Virus record (IMG/VR): IMGVR_UViG_2721755643_000006
Coordinates: 1 to 49,995 of that record
Length of the DNA: 49,995 bases
Source of the DNA: a virus
Taxonomy: Duplodnaviria > Heunggongvirae > Uroviricota > Caudoviricetes
Reading direction: 5' to 3' (one strand)
The notes beneath the pieces were generated by a model that ran no database searches, had not been told where the DNA came from, and saw only the letters and a program-made list of their open reading frames with translations. Both the position numbers and the translations under genes were made by a program. Within the stretch, counting starts at the first letter, position 1; each line of letters opens with the position of its first letter. Below, one piece after another: positions 29,735-45,097 of the stretch.

Positions 29735-29809
<75 letters not shown>

Positions 29810-29812
29810 ATA

Positions 29813-29888
<76 letters not shown>

Positions 29889-29890
29889 GC

Positions 29891-29967
29891 TGGCCCACCA
29901 CCGAGGACTCGAACCTCGCACCGTCAACTTAGAAGGTTGATGCTCTATCCGGATGAGCTAGTGGTGG
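29891..29967 (-). tRNA. tRNA-Arg (anticodon TCT)
   Basis: 77-nt cloverleaf: anticodon stem TCAAC/GTTGA, loop CTTCTAA, T-arm CGAGG-TTCGAGT-CCTCG, CCA end. Confidence 0.75.
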
Positions 29968-29968
29968 T

Positions 29969-30044
29969 TGGTGGCCCTTGCTGGACTTGAACCAGCGACC
30001 TGGCGATTATGAGTCGCTCGCTCTCACCACTGAGCTAAAGGGCC
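29969..30044 (-). tRNA. tRNA with CAT anticodon, ileX/ileZ-like (Ile2 or Met)
   Basis: GGCCCTTTAGCTCAGTGGT.AGAGC...GACTCATAATCGC...GGTCGCTGGTTCAAGTCCAGCA.GGGCCACCA is nearly identical to E. coli tRNA-Ile2 as recalled. Confidence 0.8.
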
Positions 30045-32276: not shown

Positions 32277-32352
32277 AGGATGATCCTTTTTCTATGTGAA
32301 TCATCACCAACCTGAGACCAATCAGGGTGGTGAGCTGGCGGCGTTGGTCTTA

Positions 32353-32384
32353 CCGGGAAAAAGGAACCGGCGCGCCGGAGCGCC
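32353..32384 (-). terminator. Candidate tR'-like terminator downstream of Q
   Basis: Minus-strand GC hairpin (GGCGC-loop-GCGCC within CCGGCGCGCCGG) followed by TTCCTTTTTCC. Confidence 0.3.
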
Positions 32385-32510
32385 ACCGCCAACCCACCAT
32401 AATGCGAGTGTGGCTATGCAAACGACAATAAAAAAGACGCGAGCGCGCCTATTGCCGCCTTTTTCATCCGGGAGACCAATCCCGACGCCAGATTTTGCTG
32501 ACGCGTGAGG

Positions 32511-32544: not shown

Positions 32545-32940
32545 CTACATGATTCGTTCTACGTATCTGTCCATCTCCAGTCGGATATCAAGCATCATCA
32601 ACATGCCATCAATAACCCCTTCCGCTTTCTGCAGGCGCTTGCCAATACAGGTATCCGAACACCCATGCTTTCGTGCCAGCCCCATAAAAGTCATTCCACC
32701 TACGTAATAATCCACCAACAAATCGTGCAAATCCTGATTTTTCTTGTTCAACCGGGCCATACAGCCACAAATTATCATTGCATCATCATCAGAACACTGA
32801 GGGCGTGATTTCACTTTCGGCGGGATTAATCCTTTAAAACCAGCAGCTATTGACGCCCATGACACATCTTCGTGATTGTTTGCAGCCCATGCTCCCCACC
32901 GCTCCATAACCTGCTGAATATCACGCACCATCGTTATCAC
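32545..32940 (-). CDS. Q: Late-gene antiterminator Q (DLP12 QuuD-type)
   Basis: [60 protein letters not shown]...[37 protein letters not shown] matches QuuD as recalled. Confidence 0.8.
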
Positions 32941-33299
32941 CTGTAATTTCGTAAATCTTCACACCCAGCCGCCCCCCCAGGAACGAGCTGACCGCGCACA
33001 ATATTGATTTCATCAAACTGCTCGTCGTCTATGAGAAGTCCGGCATGCGTCAGCGCATCCAGTGGTGCTTTCAGGATATTGTCCAGGTCACGACGACGTT
33101 TATCCGGTGGCTCTGCAATCACCTTTATCGCCAGCCTTCCGGACAGGCTTAATTTCAACTGCTGCTGGCGAACAATAAGCGCCACATCACGGCGATAACG
33201 CTTTCCGGCTTCCGAGATGAAATACGTATTGCCATGACGTCGCCAGTAGGTATTCACCGTCGGCGGGTAAGGCAAAACAAATTCTATGCGTTCGGTCAT
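32937..33299 (-). CDS. rusA: Holliday junction resolvase RusA
   Basis: 120 aa; [28 protein letters not shown] matches the RusA active-site region. Confidence 0.88.
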
Positions 33300-34359: not shown

Positions 34360-34638
34360 TTACCTCCAGATGCGTTGCTGGAATATGCGGGACGGACGCG
34401 GTGGGCGTTCGGAGTAAGGGAGTCTGACTGAGATTATCCAGTGACGGTAGTCGAGGCTAAGAGCTTTCTTAACCTCGTATCCGCGCCTGCGGTAACACTG
34501 AATTATCCATTCCGCCTGCTCTTCAGTGCATGGAGGATGCTGGAACCAGTCTGATTTGAATGCGTGAAAACGCCGTCCGCACCTACTGGCAAAGACGGCA
34601 GAATCATTAGAATTGTGTAATTTGGTATCGTGCGCCAT
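34360..34638 (-). CDS. Hypothetical protein (nin-region)
   Basis: 92-aa ORF from MAHDTKLHNS; weak ribosome-binding site; no family recognised. Confidence 0.4.
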   Translation of the reverse strand: MAHDTKLHNSNDSAVFASRCGRRFHAFKSDWFQHPPCTEEQAEWIIQCYRRRGYEVKKALSLDYRHWIISVRLPYSERPPRPSRIFQQRIWR

Positions 34639-34805
34639 CGGTTGTCTCTGCTGGCGCAGCAGGTGCCAGTTGTTCAGGCTGGCGTGCGAATTGTAAACCA
34701 GAATGCCAGGAAAAAACAAAACCCGCCGAAGCGGGTTACGTGCGGGTGCGTTGAGGATGCCTGACACATCAGAGGTGGCGAGGGATTTCTCCCTCGCCTG
34801 GTCTC

Positions 34806-34961
34806 TTACTCCTCAGGTTCGTAAGCTGTGAAGACAGCGACCTCCGTCTGGCCGGTTCGGATTCGTACCTCGCAGAGGTCTTCCCTCGTTACCAGTGCCG
34901 TCACTATGACGGTTAAACAGATGACGATCAGGGCGACTAACATCGCCTTTTGCTGCTTCAT
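34806..34961 (-). CDS. hok: Hok/Gef-family type I toxin
   Basis: MKQQKAMLVALIVICLTVIVTALVTREDLCEVRIRTGQTEVAVFTAYEPEE is nearly identical to E. coli HokD/RelF. Confidence 0.88.
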   Translation of the reverse strand: MKQQKAMLVALIVICLTVIVTALVTREDLCEVRIRTGQTEVAVFTAYEPEE

Positions 34962-35296
34962 AGCCTGCTTCTCCTTGCCTTCCGGCACGTAAGAGGCTAA
35001 CCTACATTTGTGAGACATAGATTGGGCCTCAGATTAATGTTAAGCGTCCTGCAAGACGCGTAATGTTAACTGGGGCTTTTCTCTGTCTGCCTTACAGTGG
35101 CATGCCCGAGGCAGACAGCCTCAAGCACCCGCAGCCATTCTACTTAACCTTTTAGCTGTTTCCAACATTTTATCTTTGCACCAAAATTCGCTCGCAACCT
35201 ATCGATAAATCTAGAATTTTTAAATTAATAGATTGCAATAACATGCGATGTTCTCTTTAACCAAAATCAGGTCACACAAAAACCATTCTACAATTT

Positions 35297-35331
35297 TTGT
35301 TGACTAATTATCTGATAATGGTTTAATGTAT
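35297..35331 (+). promoter_or_regulatory. Candidate sigma70 promoter for the XRE/ImmA cassette
   Basis: TTGACT, 17-bp spacer, TTAATG/TAATGT in a very AT-rich leader ~45 bp upstream of the AGGAGG site. Confidence 0.4.
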
Positions 35332-35376
35332 CTTCAATGGTAGTAAAAGACTACCTCCCTTGATTAGGAGGTCACA

Positions 35377-35733
35377 ATGCAAGTTACAGCTCTTGGTAGG
35401 TTCTTACGGAAAATCCGTATTGATAAAGATCAGATATTGAAAGACATGGCAGAAAAACTTGGTGTGAGTGTCGCTCAACTTTCTGCAATTGAATTAGGTA
35501 AGCGTTCAATATCTGCTGATTTTGTAGACAAATTCATGAACGTTTATGCAGACACAGTCATCAGCAGAGATGATTTTCAATGTCTGGTGGACGTATCTCA
35601 ACCAGTTCATAAAGAAGATTTTAAGAATACTTCTTACAAGCACCGAGAATTGTTCGTCACCTTTGCGCGTAAGTATAAAGAGCTTCCAGAAAGTGAAGCA
35701 AATGACTGGCTTGAGAAGATAAAAAAAATGTAA
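35377..35733 (+). CDS. XRE-family helix-turn-helix transcriptional regulator
   Basis: N-terminal HTH (LRKIRIDKDQILKDMAEKLGVSVAQLSAIELGKRSIS); AGGAGG 7 nt upstream of ATG. Confidence 0.8.
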   Translation: MQVTALGRFLRKIRIDKDQILKDMAEKLGVSVAQLSAIELGKRSISADFVDKFMNVYADTVISRDDFQCLVDVSQPVHKEDFKNTSYKHRELFVTFARKYKELPESEANDWLEKIKKM

Positions 35734-35747
35734 GGTCAAAGTCAAAG

Positions 35748-36305
35748 ATGAAACAAAAGCGATTACTGTGTAATAAAGTAAATTTTATTGCTCCTCAAAC
35801 CATATGGAAAGTTGCTGCCGCCGCGCGCCAAAAAGCAAGGCAGTATCTCCCAGCGACATCGGATCCTTCAATTGACATTGTTAGGTTATTAGACAGGCTA
35901 AACGATACCGGTGCAATTTCGATGGAAATTTGTGAAATTCATGAAATGCCGCATGAGTATGCTAAGGCAAGACCTGCATTAGGCGAGTTATACGTACGTA
36001 AAGACACTTACATTAATGCAGCAAACGGCGTACCACGTGATCGTTTTACTCTGGCTCACGAATTAGGGCATTTAATTCTTCATGCGGATGTTACGCCTGA
36101 ATTTGCTTTCTCACAGACATCCTCCAATCATGACTTTAGAGAGGACGCAGAATGGCAAGCAAACGAATTTGCCGCTTGGTTCCTGGTTGATCCGCAAGAG
36201 AAAGAGATGATCAAAACCCCAAAAGAAATTGCTGTTAACTTCAAAGTTAGCCATGAAGTCGCAGGGATCTTGTGGAGGAAATTTCGTGAAAACCAGATCA
36301 TTTAA
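35748..36305 (+). CDS. ImmA/IrrE-family zinc metallopeptidase (COG2856-like)
   Basis: HEXXH motif in LAHELGHLILH with a downstream conserved Glu region (EWQANEFAAWFL); immediately follows the XRE gene. Confidence 0.8.
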   Translation: MKQKRLLCNKVNFIAPQTIWKVAAAARQKARQYLPATSDPSIDIVRLLDRLNDTGAISMEICEIHEMPHEYAKARPALGELYVRKDTYINAANGVPRDRFTLAHELGHLILHADVTPEFAFSQTSSNHDFREDAEWQANEFAAWFLVDPQEKEMIKTPKEIAVNFKVSHEVAGILWRKFRENQII

Positions 36306-36466
36306 TCGGCAAAAGAGCGCCAACTCTTTTGCCGATAAGGATAACGATTCTGAGAGCTTACTCACCGCTCTTAGAGCATCACTACCCGCCTACTTAATGA
36401 TTCACACCTTTAGTGTAGGCGTTTTGGTGATGACTTGTAAAGGTGAGATTTACAGGAAATCAAACC

Positions 36467-36610
36467 ATGACTACAGAAATGAACGCCAAAGGCGAAGAAG
36501 TTGTGATTGTGTTTACCCCGTACATTACTCGTGGTGGTAAACGTATTTTTAAGAAAGATGGTGGATATTATCGTCTAGAAATTCCTAAAGACAAGTACCG
36601 CCAGCGATGA
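36467..36610 (+). CDS. Small basic protein (47 aa), third ORF of the XRE/ImmA cassette
   Basis: MTTEMNAKGEEVVIVFTPYITRGGKRIFKKDGGYYRLEIPKDKYRQR; AGGAAA upstream; followed by a terminator; below the ORF-track length cutoff. Confidence 0.4.
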   Translation: MTTEMNAKGEEVVIVFTPYITRGGKRIFKKDGGYYRLEIPKDKYRQR

Positions 36611-36627
36611 GCAGCTAATGATGATCT

Positions 36628-36650
36628 AAGGGGCATTCGCCCCTTTTTAT
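36628..36650 (+). terminator. Rho-independent terminator closing the plus-strand cassette
   Basis: AAGGGGC-ATTC-GCCCCTT followed by TTTAT. Confidence 0.6.
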
Positions 36651-41922: not shown

Positions 41923-42384
41923 ATGGGCGTACTCGAAATCAGTGCTCTTAGAATTAAGATGCTTCTATTGGCAAAAGGCTGGAGCCAAGCAGAACTTGCG
42001 CGCAGAATTGGTATTGCTCAACAATCCGTCCAAAGGTGGGTTTGTGGCATCTCAAGCCCTACAGCAGCCAACCTAGATAAACTATCTGATGTGACTGGAT
42101 TTCCTCAGTATTGGTTTTTCTTACCATTAAATGAAGAAAATAAGGACAGGGCACAGGATATATTAAAAATAACCCCTACGCAAAAGGAACTACTTCAAAC
42201 ATTTGAGGCATTTCCAGAGGAAGAGCAACAGCAAATGCTTAAAGATATGAAGGAGAAAAAAGAGACAATGGATCGTATAGTTGCAAAGTGGCTAGCAGCA
42301 CAACAAAAAGTTCCTAGGCAGGATTACCAGTACTTACAAGACGAGGTTCACCATGAACACGGCCCTTTCACCAATGGTTTCTGA
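41923..42384 (+). CDS. paaR2: PaaR2-like regulator of the three-component TA system (DicA paralogue)
   Basis: HTH (LLLAKGWSQAELARRIGIAQQSVQRWV) plus C-terminal domain paralogous to the upstream repressor; directly precedes paaA2-parE2. Confidence 0.75.
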   Translation: MGVLEISALRIKMLLLAKGWSQAELARRIGIAQQSVQRWVCGISSPTAANLDKLSDVTGFPQYWFFLPLNEENKDRAQDILKITPTQKELLQTFEAFPEEEQQQMLKDMKEKKETMDRIVAKWLAAQQKVPRQDYQYLQDEVHHEHGPFTNGF

Positions 42385-42544
42385 ATTTGAAACCGTCGAG
42401 CAAGAAAATAGTTATAACGAATGGCTGCGTGCAAAAGTGGCCGCAAGCCTTGCTGATCCACGTCCAGCCATTCCCCATGACGAAGTTGAACGCAGAATGG
42501 CTGAACGCTTTGCTAACATGCGCAAGGAACGGAGCAAACAGTAA
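42353..42544 (+). CDS. paaA2: PaaA2 antitoxin
   Basis: MNTALSPMVSEFETVEQENSYNEWLRAKVAASLADPRPAIPHDEVERRMAERFANMRKERSKQ nearly identical to E. coli O157 PaaA2 as recalled. Confidence 0.82.
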   Translation: MNTALSPMVSEFETVEQENSYNEWLRAKVAASLADPRPAIPHDEVERRMAERFANMRKERSKQ

Positions 42545-42832
42545 ATGTTACCGGTTTTATGGCTCGAAAGCGCAGATGCCGACCTAGATAATATAACCAG
42601 CTATATTGCACGTTTTGACATAGATGCGGCAGAACGTTTGTGGAAACGCTTAAGGACTTGCGTCCTGCCATTATCTGAACATCCGTATTTATACCCGCCA
42701 AGCGACAGAGTGCCTGGTTTGCGTGAAATTGTAGCTCACCCCAATTACATCATTCTGTACCGCGTGACAATTTCAGGCATTGAAATTGTTAACGTAGTTC
42801 ACGCCCGCCGACAGTTCCCTGTAACACCTTAA
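42545..42832 (+). CDS. parE2: ParE2 toxin (RelE/ParE superfamily)
   Basis: 95-aa ORF whose start abuts the antitoxin stop (TAAATG). Confidence 0.82.
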   Translation: MLPVLWLESADADLDNITSYIARFDIDAAERLWKRLRTCVLPLSEHPYLYPPSDRVPGLREIVAHPNYIILYRVTISGIEIVNVVHARRQFPVTP

Positions 42833-44616: not shown

Positions 44617-45097
44617 AAAGTGAATTTTGTGATGCGGTGAATGCGGCTCAGCGCACGCGGAACAGTTAAAAAGCGATTAGTTCCCACGTATCGGGTGGTT
44701 ATGGGTATCCCTGTATCCGGCGTTAATTGTTAACTGGTTAACGTCACCTGGAGGCACCAGGCACCGCATCAACAAAGTTCACTTCGGTGATGAAAGGAAA
44801 GAGAAAATGTTGAATGTAGCTATTGAAAACCAGAACGGGTGGAATTATAGTGCACCTGCACCTCATAAAACGGGTGCCGGGATTGGCCTCCTGTTAATCA
44901 CATTGGTGCCTGAACACGCGCCAAAAGCGTGTTTTTTGTTGCCTGCATTTCATCATTCAATGGCAGCTCAGGCGGGAGCTTCTCACGAAGCGCCGGGTTC
45001 CGATGTGACCGGTAAGGCCAATCCCGTCTGGGCTACCACCAATCGGATTGGCCTCTGCGGTGGTGGCAGTACTGCTTTCACATCGGAGGATGCCGTT

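Follow-up and report, generated by a model that had tools for sequence, protein, structure and literature searches.

A lambdoid Escherichia coli prophage with an apparently complete type I toxin-antitoxin module, hok/mok/sok, in its nin-equivalent region

When an open reading frame (ORF) for a Hok-type toxin turns up in prophage DNA, it has to be asked whether it is a stranded toxin gene or the coding part of a whole antisense-controlled module. Here we put this question to a locus on a 49,995-nucleotide (nt) stretch of DNA from a Caudoviricetes virus (IMG/VR record IMGVR_UViG_2721755643_000006, positions 1 to 49,995), which we call the window and number from its first letter. An earlier note, made from the letters alone, had seen a near-identical HokD/RelF-type toxin ORF in a nin region, on the early-right strand and adjoining an AT-rich island. 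It expected an overlapping mok frame and an antisense Sok RNA gene, proposed an Rfam scan and an alignment to the Qin hokD locus as checks, and took the lack of a Sok-like antisense promoter or fold-back elements as what would tell against the idea. We find that a lambdoid E. coli prophage very probably carries here, in its nin-equivalent region, a whole type I toxin-antitoxin module, hok/mok/sok, of the prophage hokD/hokW lineage. Modules of this kind are already known, ordinary and textbook matter, the exact toxin protein is already annotated as HokD, and the discovery value of the locus is small; what it offers is a tidy instance of the ancestral K-12 Qin hokD (relF) locus in its intact state, with leader, mok and sok kept.

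Two RefSeq E. coli chromosomes, RMDEC364 and VL46, match the window with 100% identity at the hok locus, and in them the corresponding DNA is annotated as a lambdoid prophage. By the annotation of the identical record, the minus strand carries the replication genes, hokD, a small ORF, a DUF968 gene, a RusA gene (frameshifted), Q, four tRNAs, holin, lysozyme and Rz. The toxin gene lies between the replication genes and Q, on the strand that also bears the replication, Q and lysis genes, and its placement on the early-right strand of a nin region holds. Homologous loci, annotated as hokD, MokW or "host killer", occur in 4734 of 5426 complete E. coli genomes (~87%) and in 101 phage records, with a median of 2 and a maximum of 10 matches per E. 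coli genome. At the locus itself the identical RefSeq record annotates the hok coding sequence only; with the coordinates given below it can be extended by mok, by Sok and by the RNA elements.

Anatomy of the toxin gene, its messenger and its antisense RNA

The toxin gene hok occupies 34806..34961 on the minus strand, with 51 codons plus a stop (MKQQKAMLVALIVICLTVIVTALVTREDLCEVRIRTGQTEVAVFTAYEPEE) behind a Shine-Dalgarno (SD) sequence, AAGGAG, at 34976-34971. Its product is identical to K-12 HokD at 49 of 51 residues (96%; the differences are I9V and K27E), which bears out the near-identity claimed earlier, and to HokW of prophage Sp5 at 45 of 51 (88%). The exact 51-residue protein is held at NCBI as "type I toxin-antitoxin system toxin HokD" and stands on 73 contigs. 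The expected mok frame is also present, in the program-made ORF list, as 70 codons at 34806..35018 on the minus strand that pass through the hok start and end at the same stop, with an SD of their own (GAGG, 35030-35027) ahead of an AUG at 35018-35016. Both the ATG and the GAGG are conserved in the homologue alignment, and the exact 70-residue mok protein is found on 45 contigs. This longer frame, hok included, matches Pfam HOK_GEF (PF01848) at E=9.5e-23, with 80 bits against a cut-off of 22, and PHROG 251 ("MokW-like host killing") at E=9e-32; the PF01848 match and the identity to HokD make the product a member of the Hok/Gef family of small (~50-residue) membrane toxins with an N-terminal hydrophobic helix and a conserved cysteine.

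A promoter scan places the hok promoter at 35137..35165 on the minus strand, with a -35 of TTGGAA (35165-35160), a 17-nt spacer and a -10 of TAGAAT (35142-35137), matching at 9 of 12 positions. By promoter position, transcription would begin at about 35130, which is exactly where the match to Rfam RF01794 starts; that match runs over the full length of the model from 35130 to 34956 on the minus strand (116.9 bits, E=4.7e-26). A -10-like hexamer stands 7 nt upstream of GGGTGC in 17 of 18 inspected homologues. The -35 region is not conserved among these 18, and homology to other loci stops at about 35148-35150, inside the promoter spacer, which leaves the hok -35 in the DNA of the neighbouring island. 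The full-length messenger, predicted to be ~420 nt long (34711..35130, minus strand), begins with GGGUGCUUGAGG and would end at an intrinsic terminator found by a terminator scan, AACCCGCUUCGGCGGGUU plus a U tract, at 34711..34737 (hairpin 34737-34720), which is kept in close homologues. The earlier box of 34806-35100 thus holds hok, mok and Sok; left outside it are the promoter of hok (to 35165), the initial 30 nt of the hok leader and, on the far side, the 3' untranslated region (UTR) with its fold-back element and terminator (to 34711).

This RNA is predicted to fold far more stably than shuffled sequences, with a minimum free energy (MFE) of -179.5 kcal/mol (z = -6.95). In the full-length MFE structure its 5' end, the tac (translational activator) element at nt 1-12 (GGGUGCUUGAGG, 35119..35130, minus strand), pairs over a long range with the complementary fbi (fold-back inhibitory) element CCUCAACGCACCC at 34744..34756. 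When the 3' end is taken away, the 5' end refolds as a local tac hairpin, and a comparison of pairing probabilities in the full-length and truncated RNAs raises the probability that the mok AUG is unpaired from 0.06 to 0.7-0.96. Three further hairpins, all on the minus strand, complete the picture. A 3'-UTR hairpin, GGCGAGGGAGAAAUCCCUCGCC, is predicted at 34777..34798 (helix 14; 93.9% paired among homologues, with 2 pairs changed on both sides). A long leader hairpin at 35026..35076, drawn from the Rfam alignment, is the sense counterpart of the Sok terminator hairpin (88% paired, 5 pairs changed on both sides) and holds a ~20-nt insertion typical of the prophage hokD/hokW lineage, present in the Sp5, Rac442 and Kluyvera loci and absent in hokC and hokB. 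The third, the sokT (Sok-target) hairpin, placed at 34999..35023 from the fold and the sequence coordinates, has the mok AUG in its 5' arm and a loop, CUCACAA (35014-35008), that begins with a YUNR-type CUCA.

The paired percentages given here come from comparison across species. A one-genome-per-species scan gave 40 hok loci, in Escherichia, Shigella, Kluyvera, Citrobacter, Pseudocitrobacter and others, from which 30 non-identical hok mRNAs spanning tac to fbi were aligned and the MFE structure of the window was projected onto the alignment. Of the cells, 87.6% are paired, against 40-46% when the partners are slid by 1-3 columns, a contrast that is inflated by taking the structure from one member of the alignment. 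Less affected by this choice are the compensatory counts: 33 pairs are changed on both sides, compared with 22.3±2.6 in shuffles, and none of 500 shuffles reaches 33. The tac/fbi helix is 97.8% paired in the 30 homologues and contains 2 compensatory pairs, so that GAGG/CCUC in the window stands as GAGA/UCUC in Kluyvera and as GAAG/CUUC in Citrobacter. The regulatory elements are both conserved and structurally constrained, which argues for ongoing selection.

The Sok gene had been expected within ~34950-35100 and is found at 35010..35086 on the plus strand, with a predicted RNA of ~77 nt. Its ends are predicted by homology, by transferring the RefSeq coordinates of the K-12 noncoding RNAs sokC and sokB, which both map there, through an alignment of the window, Sp5 hokW, a Rac-type hok and K-12 hokD, hokC and hokB. 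The RNA consists of a 5' tail (35010-35023) whose sequence complements the mok AUG and the sokT loop, a hairpin (35024-35078) and a U-rich tail, and its span covers the mok SD and AUG. It folds at -31.9 kcal/mol (z = -4.6), and none of 200 shuffles is as stable. Positional homology puts its promoter at 34975..35003 on the plus strand, with a -35 of TTGCCT (34975-34980), overlapping the hok SD on the opposite strand, a 17-nt spacer and a -10 of TAACCT (34998-35003). Both hexamers are identical to those of Sp5 sokW, and the architecture and promoter position are common to all 30 homologues. At the level of sequence, then, Sok is complementary to the mok initiation region and has its own promoter and terminator hairpin, and what the earlier note had said would tell against a module, a lack of Sok-like promoter or fold-back elements, is not what we see, given the sokW hexamers and the predicted tac/fbi pairing with its compensatory changes. 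The match between RNA and target extends to the loop, the first five bases of Sok, GUGAG, being the complement of the CUCAC with which the sokT loop begins; Franch and colleagues are said to have described in 1999 a target hairpin whose loop, of the YUNR (U-turn) type, is presented to the 5' tail of Sok. The recognition tail (35010-35026) and the sokT loop are also the most variable part of the leader among loci that are otherwise 92-96% identical. Such variability fits a need for specificity, because genomes carry several hok copies, and on the evidence of these alignments it suggests selection for hok/sok copies that do not cross-react within one genome.

Proposed mechanism and the case for a silent locus

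For the transcript ends, processing, toxicity and biological role of the locus we argue by analogy, taking the mechanism from the hok/sok paradigm of R1, for which we follow the summary by Le Rhun et al., and from hokW-sokW and carrying it over to the window on the strength of the conserved anatomy. A stable hok mRNA of ~420 nt would be made from its own promoter, and pairing of its 5' tac with its 3' fbi would keep it closed and untranslatable. Slow trimming from the 3' end would take off fbi, upon which the 5' end would refold and the mRNA would become open to translation of mok as well as to binding by Sok. In the meantime a short-lived Sok of 77 nt, transcribed convergently from the promoter inside the mok/hok overlap, would pair with the mok ribosome-binding site and start codon, block the translation of mok and hence of the coupled hok, and mark the duplex for RNase III. 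Once Sok synthesis stops, whether through loss of the prophage, through transcription shut-off by an infecting phage or, as shown for hokW, through prophage induction, the reservoir of processed hok mRNA would be translated, and Hok would enter the inner membrane and depolarise or lyse the cell.

The system of plasmid R1 (hok/sok, or parB) has the same parts as the window locus, namely a Hok/Gef toxin, a 70-residue Mok, an antisense Sok whose promoter overlies the region of the hok SD, tac and fbi, and the logic of 3' processing. The likeness to its toxin is an indirect one, as HokW is only 44% identical to R1 Hok and the window Hok is placed by transfer through HokW (45/51). R1 Sok is ~64 nt long, and that of the window, at ~77 nt, is longer owing to the hairpin insertion. 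The window locus also differs from R1 in its prophage rather than plasmid context and in its toxin, which has one hard-coded cysteine and an editable Tyr46. In K-12, hokD is edited by TadA at Tyr46, within a TACG motif, from tyrosine to cysteine, and HokC, HokD and HokE have one hard-coded cysteine and need editing for the second (PMC5630033). The window Hok shares the features of this subgroup: Tyr46 is encoded by TAC within TACG (UACG at 34820..34823, minus strand), the sequence there is identical to that of K-12 hokD, and the editable A at 34822 is predicted to be unpaired (P=0.98), which makes it a candidate TadA A-to-I site. By analogy with K-12, TadA editing of Tyr46 is likely to act as a further layer at this locus; if it does, it would give Hok a second cysteine, and the recoding may raise its toxicity.

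The closest characterised relative is hokW-sokW of the Stx2 prophage Sp5 (VT2-Sakai/933W), which is of the same lineage, with DNA ~92% identical over 88% of the query, the same leader with the ~20-nt hairpin insertion, a place on the early/late strand of a lambdoid prophage and a similar RF01794 score (113.5 bits, against 116.9 for the window). Experiments have shown it to be a toxin-antitoxin system of type I, aiding lysis and phage release: sokW vanishes on treatment with mitomycin C, after which RecA-dependent production of HokW sets in and the protein reaches the inner membrane, and phage yield is halved without hokW-sokW, with prophage retention and the exclusion of other phages as alternative roles (Takada et al. 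2021, PMC8621323). By this analogy the module of the window may likewise aid prophage-mediated lysis or prophage retention, a role that would not be specific to the window. The two loci differ in the neighbouring genes and the upstream -35 region, in the C-terminus of the toxin (FTAYEPEE in the window, FVDYESEK in HokW) and in the Sok 5' tail and sokT loop, where ~6 of the first 17 nt differ, and from this last difference the Sok RNAs of the window and of Sp5 are probably not interchangeable.

Several observations weigh against a complete and working module. A generic sigma-70 scan called no plus-strand promoter for Sok, and its -10 matches at 3 of 6 positions; we do not take the missed call as absence, because TAACCT lies below the threshold of the scan and is the same hexamer whose mutation inactivates sokW. 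In that work a change of TAACCT to GAGCCG (primer YO-421, Table 2) abolished antitoxin activity, which sokW supplied in trans restored partially (PMC8621323). Most helices of the projected structure find support among the homologues, but the sokT helix is only 59% paired on the global alignment, a low score that we ascribe to probable misalignment of the hypervariable region, because the Sok of each homologue folds well alone. Thermodynamic folding, a method that cannot settle the ucb/dcb SD switch, did not reproduce release of the mok SD on 3' truncation: GAGG is paired in the full-length and the truncated RNA alike, and the AUG alone opens. The K27E difference is a charge reversal adjoining the membrane helix of the toxin, and we found no R1 equivalent of it in the main text of the FASTBAC-Seq paper. 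The -35 hexamer of hok belongs to the DNA of the inserted island, which bears on promoter strength. Finally, the chromosomal hok loci tested earlier (hokA, hokB and hokC, by Pedersen and Gerdes) did not mediate post-segregational killing, as they are cited in the Hok diversity preprint.

Some of these points can be drawn together into the alternative that the locus is intact in sequence yet physiologically silent, with no killing on Sok depletion, like chromosomal hokA, hokB and hokC, owing to weak expression or reduced toxicity. The charge reversal at residue 27, the replacement of the -35 by island DNA beyond the break in homology and the single hard-coded cysteine of HokC, HokD and HokE all favour it. 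However, Glu27 recurs naturally, in two Kluyvera loci and in a protein found exactly on those 73 contigs; all of the regulatory elements are conserved under structural constraint; hokW-sokW is active from its native prophage context; and 42 of 45 diverse Hok homologues tested were toxic, HokD among them, according to the same preprint. We regard silence as unlikely, though deserving of some weight, and prefer a complete module that would act much as hokW-sokW does.

The adjoining AT-rich island

The AT-rich island that the earlier note had placed beside the toxin gene is real: GC content falls to 0.33-0.45 over ~35150-36650, against 0.51-0.57 to its left. It is ~1.5 kb long and was found in just 2 of 5426 E. 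coli genomes, in both of them next to hok. On its plus strand are genes for a helix-turn-helix (HTH) protein of 118 residues (35377-35733; Pfam HTH_3, PADLOC capH at E=4.3e-6) and an ImmA/IrrE M78 peptidase of 185 residues (35748-36305; Pfam Peptidase_M78, PADLOC capP at E=3.9e-13), a pair of an HTH repressor and an M78/ImmA peptidase that PADLOC relates to CapH and CapP. These are followed by a conserved basic ORF of 47-55 residues without a family match (36443/36467-36610) and by a terminator of the cassette at 36628-36645. The HTH/ImmA pair is divergent from hok across an AT-rich intergenic region of ~210 bp, in which repeated TCTA(G/C)AATTTTT boxes and an imperfect palindrome (35208-35234) are found.

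This arrangement raises the alternative that the rare 1.5-kb cassette, inserted exactly in the hok promoter spacer and supplying its -35, has captured hok transcription. Hok would then perhaps stand under a DNA-damage-sensing repressor and protease, as an inducible effector on top of the control by Sok. The capH and capP matches, the divergent layout over the AT-rich intergenic region, and the boxes and palindrome between cassette and hok speak for such a capture. The boxes, however, are not over the hok promoter but border the promoter that serves the cassette itself, ~45 bp upstream of the hok -35, and the cassette is self-contained, with its HTH, ImmA and 47-residue products and its own terminator. 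Relatives of the three-gene cassette, 49-84% identical, sit in other prophage slots (the Q-holin gap, beside a methylase) or in chromosomal DNA flanked by insertion sequence (IS) elements (between IS elements in Pantoea), and in the 8 loci examined no hok-sized gene was called beside them. Adjacency to hok is confined to the two genomes mentioned above, and hok loci elsewhere function without the cassette. We therefore rejected regulation by the island as the principal explanation, the cassette being autonomous and located elsewhere in its relatives. Both the capture of hok by the cassette and the resulting use of Hok as a DNA-damage effector strike us as very improbable; the adjacency appears incidental, and the cassette could be a moron or a defence unit with the 47-residue protein as effector or target.

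Relatives in K-12, the Rfam model and other features of the window

The near-identity of the protein to K-12 HokD, together with a downstream DUF968 gene 78% identical to ydfU, invites a further alternative, in which the locus is a decayed remnant like Qin hokD (relF), a toxin ORF without its own mok, sok and leader. The alignment to Qin hokD gives the answer in two halves. The ORF and the 3' UTR with fbi and terminator do align, the same TACG motif stands at Tyr46, and downstream synteny takes in ydfU and Q. In K-12, by contrast, tac and the leader, the mok start and sok are lost, the relBE operon abuts the hok SD, and divergence from the window sets in just upstream of the SD, where relE ends. 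RF01794 finds no match at K-12 hokD, against a full-length one in the window, which has the mok frame, tac, fbi and both the promoter and the hairpin of Sok. The full-length match and the alignment refute the remnant reading, to which we give next to no credence.

The chromosomal hokC/sokC (gef) and hokB/sokB of K-12 are homologous to the window in leader, mok and Sok, and the coordinates of their noncoding RNAs transfer; they score 118 and 110 bits with RF01794, lack the ~20-nt hairpin insertion and are not prophage-borne, and the 3' end of hokC, with fbi, is disrupted by IS186. They also clarify the Rfam model itself. The Rfam scan did return the match that had been hoped for, on the hok-sense strand, where it is the hok leader: RF01794, named "sok antitoxin (CssrC)", is built hok-sense and covers the whole leader up to the hok AUG, and the real Sok is the reverse complement of the central part of the model. 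That the antitoxin is instead a 175-nt minus-strand transcript at 34956-35130, as the name and strand of the match would have it if read literally, has practically no chance of being right, since in K-12 the model matches the strand of hokC and hokB (150-175 nt, to the hok AUG) with the annotated sokC and sokB antisense inside, its consensus ends in an SD-like AAGGCAAgG followed shortly by an AUG aligned to the hok start codon, and the sokW probes and primers are antisense (PMC8621323). An automated annotation that relies on RF01794 will accordingly get both the strand and the extent of the antitoxin wrong.

Around the module, the small gene downstream is rem in Qin and an unrelated gene in the window. 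Here, directly downstream of the hok terminator, lies an ORF of 92 residues (34360-34638, minus strand; PHROG 1212, to which PHROG assigns no function), in the position of rem and without similarity to Rem; a longer, GTG-started version of 135 residues (to 34767) would run over both fbi and the terminator of hok. Between the DUF968 gene and Q is a gene for a RusA-family resolvase (32921-33299, minus strand). The 100%-identical RefSeq record marks this gene as frameshifted, which suggests that the prophage is partly decayed. The window also holds, at 42353-42832 (plus strand) and close to the immunity region of the prophage, a type II toxin-antitoxin pair made up of a RelB-family antitoxin of 63 residues and a RelE/ParE-family toxin of 95 residues. 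We compared these two genes with K-12 relBE of Qin and detected no similarity, and therefore see no evolutionary link to the Qin relBE-hokD arrangement.

Four tRNA genes (Ile, Arg, Thr and Gly by RefSeq annotation) lie at 29738-30044 on the minus strand, with the methyltransferase/Q region on one side and the lysis genes on the other, an arrangement also seen in Stx-type lambdoid phages. Two pairs of isrK and C4-antisense RNAs were also found, at 32323-32504 (minus strand) and 44858-45043 (plus strand), in opposite orientations and ~12 kb apart, with Rfam scores of 60-71 bits. The first lies between Q and an ORF6N (antirepressor-like) gene, as in the IsrK/anti-Q arrangement of Gifsy-1, while the second stands beyond an IS66 element and may belong to another prophage remnant.

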